From contig NZ_JBALTF010000003.1 in NCBI RefSeq assembly GCF_036964675.1, forward strand, positions 5,628-69,627: a stretch of DNA of 64,000 nt. The letters are read 5' to 3'. The notes beneath the pieces were generated by a model. The model made no database searches. It was not told the origin of the DNA and saw only the letters and a program-made list of their open reading frames with translations. This document shows, piece after piece, positions 44,600-49,054 of this stretch (its first letter is position 1; every line of letters begins with the position of its first letter). Origin of the DNA: Parasphingorhabdus sp. Lineage in GTDB: Bacteria > Pseudomonadota > Alphaproteobacteria > Sphingomonadales > Sphingomonadaceae. Made by a program: the position numbers and the translations under genes.

Positions 44600-45130
44600 A
44601 TGGCCCCAAAATATCTGATTTTACTGGCGGCGCTGCCGCTTGCCCTGTCCGCTTGCAGCAAGGTGAAAGATGACTCCGCCGATGGTTCGGGGCTGTCGAT
44701 CGACTTTAGCGATGACAGCAAGCCCGACGCCGAAAAAATCAAAATTGGCGGCGGCGAGGAGGACAGCAAATTCTCGATCAAGGCTGATGGTTTCTCGATG
44801 GAAGTCGATTTGCCGTCGATCACGCTCGACAGCGATGATTTCGATATGAACAATGTCGATCTTTATCCGGGCAGTCAGATAACCAGCTTTGATATTGAAG
44901 ATGCGAAAGGCGAGGGTGGCAAGGTTCAAATCAGTTTCAAGGCACCGGCAAGTGCTGACAAGCTGGCGGACTGGTATGCGGGGCAATTGTCCGGCAAGGA
45001 TTTCGAAGTCGCACGGGACGGCACCAACCTGTCCGGAAAAACCGATGAAGGCGATCCCTTCTCGCTGGCGTTGACGGAAATATCAGCCAAGCAATCAAAA
45101 GGTGTGCTGGAGTTTTCCGAAAGCAAATAG
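44600..45130 (+). CDS. Hypothetical acidic lipoprotein
   Basis: GGAG RBS; MAPKYLILLAALPLALSAC lipobox. Confidence 0.85.
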   Translation: MAPKYLILLAALPLALSACSKVKDDSADGSGLSIDFSDDSKPDAEKIKIGGGEEDSKFSIKADGFSMEVDLPSITLDSDDFDMNNVDLYPGSQITSFDIEDAKGEGGKVQISFKAPASADKLADWYAGQLSGKDFEVARDGTNLSGKTDEGDPFSLALTEISAKQSKGVLEFSESK

Positions 45131-45194
45131 ACGCGGTGATCCAGCGCGGCTATTTGGTTAGCTGCCGTTCGTCCTCAGTCATCACACCACCTTG

Positions 45195-45270
45195 GTCATC
45201 CTGAACTTGTTTCAGGACCTCCATCGGCACTGCACAATCTCACGAGGTCCTGAAACAAGTTCAGGATGAC
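45195..45270. repeat. REP/MITE-like element with perfect 27-bp inverted arms
   Basis: GTCATCCTGAACTTGTTTCAGGACCTC (45195-45221) and its exact reverse complement (45244-45270). Confidence 0.9.
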
Positions 45271-45539
45271 GAGAGTTGGATGGTTCACTAATGCACTTAT
45301 CCCGATCCGTCGGTACTGAGCTTGTCGAACAGCTTGTCCAACAACGGTTTGATTTTCCCTTCTCCCTCACGAGAGAGGGTGATCCGCCCGTTATAGCTAG
45401 CGGTGCTCACCTGGGGATAATCGCCCAGCATCTTTGCGGCGATACCGGCTTCCCAGTTGCAAAACATGCAACATATTATTCTCCATTTTCAATTGAAACC
45501 TAATTCTCGTGCGACCATCTGGAGTTTGTAAGTTACGCA

Positions 45540-45564
45540 GGAAAAGAGATGTTTGATCGGCGTT
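45540..45564 (+). promoter_or_regulatory. ECF (EcfG/SigT-like) promoter candidate
   Basis: GGAAA-N16-CGTT versus GSR consensus GGAAC-N16/17-CGTT; just upstream of the sORF RBS. Confidence 0.4.
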
Positions 45565-45582
45565 GAAATAAGGAGAAAATCC

Positions 45583-45657
45583 ATGAGAACGCTTTTCAAT
45601 ATAGTCGCCGCCCTGTCCGTTAGCAGCATCATTCTGCTCACGACGGTTCAGGTCTAA
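45583..45657 (+). CDS. 24-aa hydrophobic small protein MRTLFNIVAALSVSSIILLTTVQV
   Basis: AAGGAG 7 nt before ATG; single hydrophobic helix; below ORF-track cutoff. Confidence 0.7.
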   Translation: MRTLFNIVAALSVSSIILLTTVQV

Positions 45658-45669
45658 GGCAAAAAGTTA

Positions 45670-45766
45670 CAATCCCGGCTGCCGCATCCTCCTCCCGATT
45701 GCGGCGCCGGGATTGGTCCAAAGGTCCGGTCCCTCCTCCATCCCCTCCCAAGAGCAGGGCCGGACC
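45670..45766 (+). ncRNA. Tandem hairpins with CCUCC anti-SD loops (cuckoo/alpha-r14/CcsR-like)
   Basis: Hairpin 45670-45715 with CCTCCTCCC (45688-96) in the loop; hairpin 45723-45766 with CCCTCCTCC and CCCCTCCC. Confidence 0.55.
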
Positions 45767-45812
45767 AGCGGACAAAATTCCATAATTCGCGATCAAATCC
45801 AAAATTTGGAAA

Positions 45813-45867
45813 TTATCCACCATATCAGCAGCAGTTTTCCACCGCTAAGTGGCCTGCCTGTGGATAA
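45813..45867. promoter_or_regulatory. Cluster of three DnaA-box matches
   Basis: TTATCCACC (45813-21), TTTTCCACC (45835-43), TGTGGATAA (45859-67; perfect TTATCCACA on minus strand). Confidence 0.6.
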
Positions 45868-45919
45868 CTTTCGTTTTTCAACTAGGAGCGACTCGGAATA
45901 CAGAGTCATATATAAGTCA

Positions 45920-46300
45920 TCGGAAGGGAAACGGACGAACCAGCGACCAGTCAGCAATGACCCGCAGGACAGCCCGGAACCCGGAAGATGATTGAGACGA
46001 CCGGTTTGTTTTTCGCAAGAAAAGGAAATTGATCTCTGGATCGATGATCGGAGAAAGTCCGAAAAGGGAAGGCGCAAGCCCGATCGGATCAGACGGACTA
46101 AGATCATCAGGTGACTGGACCAAGTGCGGGTTGGAAACCGAAGCGAGGAAGCGCAAGCGGACACGTGGAAAACCACTGACCATTAACGGATTTGGACCGG
46201 AAACCGGACGCCGAACAAGCGGCTACTGGAATCGCAAGAGGATAGTGGCCCCAACAGAGGCGCAGCGGGAGCTTATCTTCGGGTAAGCTCCCGTTTTTTT
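45920..46300 (+). ncRNA. Putative ~380-nt GGA-rich multi-hairpin non-coding RNA
   Basis: 24 GGA versus 1 TCC in 45922-46270; five GCAA-tetraloop hairpins; ends in an intrinsic terminator; no credible ORF. Confidence 0.65.
46265..46300 (+). terminator. Intrinsic terminator of GGA-rich segment
   Basis: GCGGGAGCTTATC-TTCG-GGTAAGCTCCCGT stem (cUUCGg loop) followed by a T run (46294-46300). Confidence 0.88.
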
Positions 46301-46834
46301 GTCCTGCTTGGCCGCTGCGATGAACCGGTCTCCGGATTTTATGATTCATCCTCCGCTTTTTCGATGACCAGTGATCGCCATCACAGTGCGCTCAAAAAGA
46401 CTCGGCTAACCAAGGGCTGCGGTATCGGTCAGATGAAGCATTCCACTCGATATGATCCCGGTGCCGCACCAAGCCCTTTTGGGTATTCAGGAGAAGTTCG
46501 ACGGCCATTGCGACCCGACCGTCGGACTTCTCTCGTTGCGTCCGATGGAGTCGCCAAAACCGGGCTTCGGCACCCCAGTCTGCGCCCTTTTGGATAAGCG
46601 GTTCCATCTGCATGGCTGGCGCTTTTGGTCGGGACGAAAATATTCCCGTCGCTGCCTTAAAAACTACTTGCTGTTCCTCTATTGCAATGTCGAAGTCGGC
46701 AAAACCGGTTGCGAATATCTCCCGGGGCCAGGTTGATCGACCGGTTCGATTACACTCAGGAATTTTACTGGTTTCGTCATCTATTCAAATGGCGGTAATA
46801 TCGACTTAACAATTTCGAAATTCAGTAGGAGAGA

Positions 46835-49054
<2,220 letters not shown>

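Follow-up and report, generated by a model that had tools for sequence, protein, structure and literature searches.

The analysed window, a 64,000-nt stretch of a Parasphingorhabdus sp. genome (contig NZ_JBALTF010000003.1, positions 5,628 to 69,627), carries an RNA gene of about 380 nt at 45919-46299 on the + strand. The locus is almost certainly a stand-alone, structured, non-coding RNA (ncRNA) gene of a new family. A first-pass annotation of the window had proposed an ncRNA of about 380 nt here, and covariation among homologues, stand-alone metatranscriptome contigs and the lack of conservation of the overlapping open reading frames (ORFs) bear out that proposal. The RNA folds into five successive domains, each capped by a GCAA loop, which are followed by an intrinsic terminator. 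The features are as follows.

45919-46299, + strand: the complete RNA of about 380 nt; supported by homologues in 60 further loci, covariation, fold z-score and stand-alone metatranscriptome contigs
45919-45989, + strand: domain 1 (helices 1-5); closing helix AUC/GAU, imperfect arm, cap GUCA-GCAA-UGAC (loop 45954-45957)
45990-46042, + strand: domain 2 (helices 6-7); long hairpin, cap UUUUUC-GCAA-GAAAAG (loop 46015-46018); pairs 77:130 and 83:124 covary (GC/AU/CG)
46043-46108, + strand: domain 3 (helices 8-10); stem GAUGAUC/GAUCAUC, large purine-rich internal loops, cap GGC-GCAA-GCC (loop 46074-46077)
46110-46205, + strand: domain 4 (helices 11-14); branched or long-range arm, cap GC-GCAA-GC (loop 46153-46156); pairs 212-214:278-280 and 234:253 covary
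46209-46262, + strand: domain 5 (helices 15-17); closing helix CGCC/GGCG, covarying middle helix, cap UC-GCAA-GA (loop 46234-46237)
46264-46299 (stem to 46295), + strand: intrinsic terminator; 14-bp stem, UUCG loop, U7 tail; pair 356:395 either CG (28 sequences) or UA (11)

Fold, composition and non-coding status

The consensus structure was obtained with RNAalifold from an alignment (A3) of 39 sequences of 382-397 nt with a mean column identity of 84%, on which all pair counts were made. It contains 94 pairs, and 97.5% of the corresponding alignment cells hold standard pairs. Changes on both sides are found in 28 pairs, compared with 17.8 in shuffles (none of 500 reaches 28) and only 7-14 in controls in which the 3' partners were slid by 1-3 columns. 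Given this covariation, selection acts on base pairing in the RNA and not on the DNA only. Five consensus pairs are predominantly G-U and therefore fit the + strand only. The fold z-score against shuffles is -4.7 on the + strand versus -1.75 on the - strand.

The same five domains are present in all 39 aligned homologues, and full-length matches to the profile come from the other 21 as well. Nearly all of the 195 aligned loops retain GCAA; a handful deviate, mostly to sequences that still read G-N-N-A. In domain 3, pair 137:190 switches between CG (25 sequences) and UA (11). The internal loops AACCGAA, GGAAAAC and UAACG of domain 4 are highly conserved, and four of the six pairs in the middle helix of domain 5 show double changes. 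The terminator stem is longer in a second clade, with compensatory changes.

The apex of domain 1 has an invariant stretch of 16-22 nt. Among 20 homologues retrieved via another part of the RNA, 19 carry its 16-nt block AGUCAGCAAUGACCCG without a change, so the invariance is no artefact of the search pattern. Domains 3-5 share a module, GGAA-(2-3 bp)-GCAA-(2-3 bp)-GGA, at a spacing of 79-81 nt. The modules are visible as direct repeats, CCGAA..GGAAGCGCAAGC and GGAAKCGCAAGNGGA, at this same distance, which suggests that this part of the RNA may have grown by duplication.

The five GCAA-looped hairpins of the first-pass annotation (45954, 46015, 46074, 46153, 46234) and its UUCG/U7 terminator (46264-46295) are present. 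Other hairpins that it proposed are not part of the shared fold. In place of GTGG-AAAA-CCAC, columns 253-255 pair with 232-234, with GC-to-AU covariation in 10-11 sequences. The hairpin GGTT-GGA-AACC cannot form in the clade that reads GGGTTT-AAACC. The GATCGG..CCGATC multiloop and the first CCGG-AAC-CCGG are inverted repeats in the window's own sequence and are not conserved. As a side observation at 46030-46108, the RNA contains six copies of GATC (3-7 per homologue) versus about 1.5 expected at equal base frequencies. In domains 2 and 3 they make up the basal stems, which are self-complementary and could permit alternative pairings or dimerisation.

The RNA is purine-rich (G 31%, A 30%, C 23%, T 15%; A+G about 61%). 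The interval 45920-46300 contains 24 GGA, 2 TCC, 5 GCAA and no TTGC, and, as the first pass had noted, a single TCC precedes the terminator. Its GGA count is the highest of any 380-nt stretch of the window (mean 5.8, standard deviation 2.7). Measured against dinucleotide-preserving shuffles of the RNA, no trinucleotide is more enriched than GGA (23 versus 14.1 expected, z 3.7), and GAG and GGG are the most depleted (z about -3, 45918-46262). Because A+G reaches about 61% and the shuffle z is 3.7, the GGA excess is in one part plain purine richness and in another part specific to GGA. The bias over TCC is retained in the 39 homologues (14-24 GGA versus 1-4 TCC, mean z 2.7).

Nineteen GGA sites are kept in at least 50% of homologues and 7-8 in at least 90%, mostly in internal loops and junctions. 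The hairpin loops of the consensus structure contain none of the 24, which bears out the earlier remark that most GGAs sit outside loops. The only context shared by the conserved sites is YGGAM, and about ten conserved single-stranded motifs of this type are present.

No conserved protein is encoded by the region. The longest ORFs over the RNA span 40-127 amino acids and differ between genomes in start, end, length and frame. In the homologue alignment, substitutions have no three-base periodicity (0.124/0.148/0.131 by position). The overlapping ORFs have neither a Pfam match nor a Shine-Dalgarno sequence, and a database search with the longest of them returned only 15 irregular hypothetical proteins from the same clade and no distant homologues. 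Public gene calls lie atop the RNA (L001 5868-6197, L002 5765-6307), one example being AZE99_04445 of Sphingorhabdus sp. M41, with 109 amino acids. These hypothetical-protein annotations are likely mis-annotations. The locus thus has the generic marks of a structured ncRNA gene: compensatory pairing, strand-specific G-U pairs, a terminator, a transcript and no conserved ORF, together with a promoter predicted from conservation.

The family is undescribed as far as Rfam 15 and literature searches show, in line with the first-pass annotation. Rfam 15 gave no match at gathering score across the whole window, and a permissive scan (E up to 10, 45600-46500) gave only chance-level matches with E above 1. 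A housekeeping RNA (tmRNA, RNase P RNA, 6S RNA or SRP RNA) is rejected by the lack of Rfam matches and by ARAGORN, which found no tRNA or tmRNA in the window. The literature search found no paper tying an ncRNA to Sphingorhabdus, and the family is outside the coverage of two large Breaker-lab surveys. To our knowledge, few structured RNAs of about 380 nt have been described in Alphaproteobacteria besides housekeeping ones. The RNA family could enter Rfam, and the spurious ORFs could leave the annotations.

Predicted promoter, distribution and transcripts

Sequence conservation of the RNA starts at 45917-45918 in an alignment of the upstream regions of homologous loci, and conservation farther upstream is punctate. 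The conserved elements are as follows, with positions relative to the predicted start.

45813-45821, + strand: DnaA-box-like site 1, TTATCCACC (TTGTCCACA in the second clade), about -106 to -98; core TCCAC invariant, flanks variable
45835-45843, + strand: DnaA-box-like site 2, TTTTCCACC (TTTTCCACA in the second clade), about -84, 22 nt after site 1
45859-45867, - strand: DnaA box 3, a perfect TTATCCACA (TGTGGATAA read on the + strand), about -60 to -52; invariant in every aligned locus
45889-45895, unstranded: CGACTCG, containing the putative CcrM methylation site GANTC; read on the opposite strand as CGAGTCG, a fit to the GcrA motif YGAKTCK; centred near -27; at fixed distance in 61 of 61 loci
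45903-45907: a second GANTC (GAGTC) just before the -10 element; in 36 of 61 loci
45907-45912, + strand: -10-like hexamer CATATA, in 51 of 61 loci, with CATAxx in most others; sets the predicted +1 near 45919

With this predicted -10 element and the conserved upstream motifs, the RNA appears to have its own promoter. The DnaA box consensus is TTATNCACA, or TTWTNCACA. Sites 1 and 2 are each one base off this consensus in the window, and site 3 is the window's sole perfect TTATCCACA. All three sites are kept at fixed distance in 56 of 58 loci, 22-24 nt apart and phased. Three species have an oppositely oriented DUF1993 gene inserted between the upstream small-ORF module described below and the RNA (L003 5684-6256, L004 5709-6275, L015). 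The three sites remain on the RNA side in these species, thus between two divergent genes.

In Caulobacter, YGAKTCK sites give high GcrA occupancy, and GcrA-regulated promoters carry them at most 40 bp from the start (PMC4647560). A YGAKTCK-type site likewise lies less than 40 bp from the predicted start here. The arrangement resembles the GcrA/CcrM- and DnaA-dependent promoters of ftsZ, mipZ and ctrA P1 in Caulobacter, with a high-ranking YGAKTCK site at most 40 bp from the predicted start and DnaA boxes upstream (PMC4647560). Unlike in those promoters, the putative motif set precedes a non-coding RNA, and does so in a sphingomonad. The promoter unites two marks of the alphaproteobacterial cell-cycle circuit, DnaA boxes and a GcrA-type methylation site, and no description of this combination ahead of a non-coding RNA was found. 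Judged from these motifs, there is an even chance that DnaA and/or GcrA feed into transcription of the RNA. A replication origin at the locus was considered and rejected, as GC skew is positive throughout with no switch.

The 60 further loci comprise four syntenic loci, 35 species genomes, 20 metagenome contigs and P. marina. All four syntenic loci, which were reached via the flanking lipoprotein, a protein that marks the organism as a Parasphingorhabdus, carry the RNA. A 21-nt pattern from domain 1, run on one genome per species, found the RNA in 35 species with one copy each; 34 copies are full-length, and the one in L006 is cut by the end of the locus. The species are labelled Parasphingorhabdus, Sphingorhabdus and unclassified Sphingomonadaceae or Sphingomonadales, plus one metagenome-assembled genome labelled Sphingopyxis. 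P. marina DSM 22363 carries the RNA though the 21-nt pattern missed it. A metagenome scan with a pattern on domains 4-5 gave 97 matches, of which 20 are true homologues, all from the same clade, and 77 are chance matches.

At the syntenic site in two outgroup genera, represented by Alterisphingorhabdus coralli and Blastomonas, the DUF4197 gene is directly followed by the guanylate kinase gene, and the RNA is absent. As far as these searches reach, the family appears confined to one genus-level clade (Parasphingorhabdus/Sphingorhabdus, Sphingomonadaceae). The RNA has no blastn match among the plasmids of PLSDB or the GenBank phages of INPHARED, and a plasmid or phage origin is rejected on this basis.

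Transcripts of the RNA are found in environmental samples. Metatranscriptome contigs of 330-344 nt from four marine and freshwater metatranscriptomes match only 45932-46272. Over 20 kb around the RNA, no other contig from a related organism was found, and the remaining matches are short conserved katG-like pieces from unrelated organisms. A P. flavimaris-type variant forms a 336-nt contig in a polyA-selected marine library, with a word depth of 93, contig depth being a poor measure of expression, and it turns up in numerous further RNA runs. Near-full-length contigs that stand alone recur across many independent samples, as expected of a transcript that is stable and abundant. Contigs from five independent metatranscriptomes share their first base (window 45932-45933; L021 1616). 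The RNA is abundant enough for lone assembly from ocean, sediment and lake metatranscriptomes, and public genomes list it as a hypothetical protein or leave it unannotated. It offers a sensitive transcript marker of active Parasphingorhabdus in environmental data.

Candidate functions of the RNA

The best overall explanation, held tentatively and at rather less than even probability, is an RNA that serves as a protein platform, with its timing tied to replication or the cell cycle. Its transcription would be set by DnaA together with the CcrM/GcrA methylation system, coupling the RNA level to replication initiation and S phase. The RNA would act in trans as a stable protein-binding platform, either a decoy or a scaffold. 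The three GGAA-(2-3 bp)-GCAA-(2-3 bp)-GGA modules about 80 nt apart, together with the two other capped arms, may provide repeated docking sites. Such an RNA would not pair with Shine-Dalgarno-like or CCUCC partners and would be no homologue of CsrB. The platform mechanism is possible but more tentative, and we infer it more weakly than the DnaA/GcrA timing. It is favoured because of the repeated, sequence-specific cap-and-flank modules, the conserved single-stranded GGA, the avoided pairing partners and the U-poor, stable body. If the cell-cycle link is true, the RNA would be a tractable entry to RNA-level control of replication and the cell cycle outside Caulobacter.

The platform has a parallel in CrcZ and CrcY, the Hfq/Crc-titrating RNAs of about 400 nt in Pseudomonas, which are of similar size, carry repeated motif modules and stand alone behind a specialised promoter. 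CrcZ-type sponges contain five or six A-rich CA motifs (AANAANAA) and have an RpoN/CbrB promoter site. The present RNA differs in that AANAANAA occurs 0-2 times per homologue and not at all in the window, and in that its promoter has DnaA-box and GANTC motifs in place of the RpoN/CbrB site. A more specific version of the platform would be an independently invented, CsrB-like titration circuit, in which a genus-specific RNA timed by DnaA and CcrM/GcrA sequesters or scaffolds a protein that recognises GGA/GCAA hairpins. This version is improbable.

Several points weigh against a cell-cycle-timed protein platform. The roles of DnaA, GcrA and CcrM are deduced from motif matches and conservation, and the start site is a predicted one. 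For Caulobacter a peak at -20 is reported, and the centre of CGACTCG, at about -27, is located slightly farther upstream. On the 5' side, the metatranscriptome contigs fall 13-14 nt short of the predicted start, and on the 3' side they stop about 30 nt ahead of the U-tract; their common 5' end could reflect assembly erosion or a processed 5' end. The GGA surplus beyond composition is moderate (z 1.2-4.0 across homologues), and several GGAs are partly base-paired. No gene for the hypothetical protein partner is linked to the RNA, as the downstream genes vary (SDR, katG, DUF1353). Finally, the fixed architecture, invariant junctions and five GNRA-type caps fit a self-folding RNA at least as well.

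Such a self-sufficient, tertiary-folded RNA is the main rival, if a somewhat unlikely one. It could be a ribozyme, a ligand sensor or an RNA-only assembly like ROOL, GOLLD, OLE or raiA, in which the GCAA tetraloops and A/G-rich internal loops make intra- or intermolecular contacts and do not bind protein. The single architecture with covarying helices, the sequence-invariant junctions and internal loops and the five GNRA-type caps favour this view, as do high abundance and a length constant within 15 nt across about 60 sequences. The RNA also resembles raiA, ROOL, GOLLD, OLE and IMES RNAs in being abundant in environmental data, multi-domain and covarying, GNRA-capped and without an assigned function when discovered. 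Unlike them, it matches no Rfam model and is distributed much more narrowly, in one genus, and it is smaller than ROOL, GOLLD and OLE. A search for tertiary contacts in the RNA identified no tetraloop receptor or pseudoknot, a CUAAG-like segment is not conserved, and a mutual-information scan for tertiary pairs was dominated by the split into two clades, with nothing convincing. These results, the genus-level distribution and the lack of an Rfam 15 match argue against an RNA of this kind. In addition, the caps are specifically GCAA, which suggests a sequence read-out.

A base-pairing regulator or RNA sponge is the next alternative, in which single-stranded stretches or the domain-1 apex pair with messenger RNAs or small RNAs (sRNAs), possibly with an sRNA encoded directly upstream. 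The upstream module (45540-45775) adjoins the RNA in 38 of 39 genomes, frequently with katG close by. It contains the following conserved features.

45540-45564: EcfG-like promoter GGAAA-N16-CGTT, part of the conserved module
45583-45657: hydrophobic small ORF of 24 codons, MRTLFNIVAALSVSSIILLTTVQV, conserved at the amino-acid level
45668-45771: two hairpins with the loops CCUCCUCCC and CCUCCUCCAUCCCCUCCC, conserved anti-Shine-Dalgarno-type loop motifs

Loops of the CCUCCUCCC type are a hallmark of cuckoo/CcsR/ar14-type sRNAs (PMC4615179, PMC8034643). The Rfam ar14 model matches the upstream hairpins weakly, at 17 bits versus a gathering score of 58.8. The module also resembles Caulobacter GsrN, whose features include C-rich loops, dependence on a stress sigma factor and a katG target (PMC5869019).

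The TCC-richest region adjoins the GGA-richest region, so titration of the C-rich sRNA by the RNA seemed plausible and was tested by duplex energies. The duplex with the first C-rich loop has an energy of -12.8 kcal/mol versus a shuffle mean of -16.7, and that with the second has -16.1 kcal/mol versus -24.4. Pairing with both loops is weaker than in 99-100% of dinucleotide shuffles, and pairing with the 16S anti-Shine-Dalgarno sequence is weaker than in 94%. A sponge for the neighbouring C-rich sRNA, one form of the sRNA sponge that the first-pass annotation had entertained, is rejected on these grounds, as is a ribosome decoy. Taken with the depletion of GAG and GGG, the weak duplexes suggest that an abundant purine-rich RNA is under selection to avoid Shine-Dalgarno-like sequence, which would be the opposite of a sponge for those partners.

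These results make a base-pairing role distinctly improbable, even with the linked module and the invariant apex in its favour. A U-rich terminator tail, typical of Hfq-dependent sRNAs, and one (ARN)4 stretch at 46017 would also suit it. However, the complement of the invariant apex has no site in the window, and size and structure are atypical of seed-pairing sRNAs. CcnA of Caulobacter crescentus, an RNA of the pairing kind, is reportedly a shorter transcript from the origin region that CtrA drives and that pairs with ctrA and gcrA mRNAs. CcnA is similar in being an alphaproteobacterial ncRNA gene beside DnaA boxes, with expression tied to cell-cycle regulators (PMC8959179). The present RNA is unlike CcnA in its length of about 380 nt and its position away from the origin; the two have no sequence relation, and the RNA looks built for structure over seed pairing.

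A sponge of the CsrB/RsmZ type, which would sequester a CsrA/RsmA homologue via GGA motifs, is highly doubtful. The RNA shares with CsrB, CsrC and RsmX/Y/Z a length of a few hundred nt, a similar GGA count with a conserved strand bias over TCC, an intrinsic terminator and abundant, stand-alone occurrence. In CsrB/Rsm sponges, numerous short hairpins display GGA in their loops, embedded in CAGGA(U/C/A)G or A(N)GGA. In the present RNA, by contrast, the loops are GCAA and GGA lies outside them. Each homologue has 0-1 copies of CAGGA[UCA]G and only 2-6 of A.GGA. The fold is a fixed, covarying set of five domains of near-constant length, unlike a repeat array that turns over. No GacA/UvrY box (TGTAAG-N6-CTTACA) lies within 1.5 kb of the RNA, even when up to 3 mismatches are allowed, and the covariance models of CsrB, CsrC, RsmX, RsmY and RsmZ/PrrB gave no match with E up to 10 in 45600-46500. 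The CsrB-like architecture of the first-pass annotation is thus not upheld. A tblastn search for csrA with three approximate CsrA/RsmA queries gave nothing significant in the window and 39 related loci, which amount to 370 kb and not to whole genomes. A 2026 survey reports that CsrA is uncommon in Pseudomonadota other than Gammaproteobacteria (PMC13443453).

It is very improbable that the DNA locus itself is what matters, either as a DnaA-titrating or -reactivating site (datA- or DARS-like) or as an R-loop unit with a hybridised purine-rich transcript. The three phased, conserved DnaA boxes and the purine-rich transcript would fit such a site, but covariation reports selection on RNA pairing, free RNA is highly accumulated, and an origin-like GC-skew switch is missing. 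A small protein-coding gene from an overlapping ORF such as AZE99_04445 can be virtually discounted, since ORFs of 85-127 amino acids, open in some genomes and annotated by gene callers, have the inconsistent frames and ends and the lack of codon periodicity, Shine-Dalgarno sequence and Pfam match given above.

Variation around the locus

Two differences set the window genome apart from most relatives. First, there is no DUF4197 gene separating the lipoprotein gene from the small-ORF module (45130-45540). Second, the 298-amino-acid SDR gene between the RNA and katG is absent (46300-46835). Both stretches resemble leftover intergenic DNA. In close relatives from metagenomes, 70 nt at 45372-45441 are swapped for an unrelated stretch of 25 nt.

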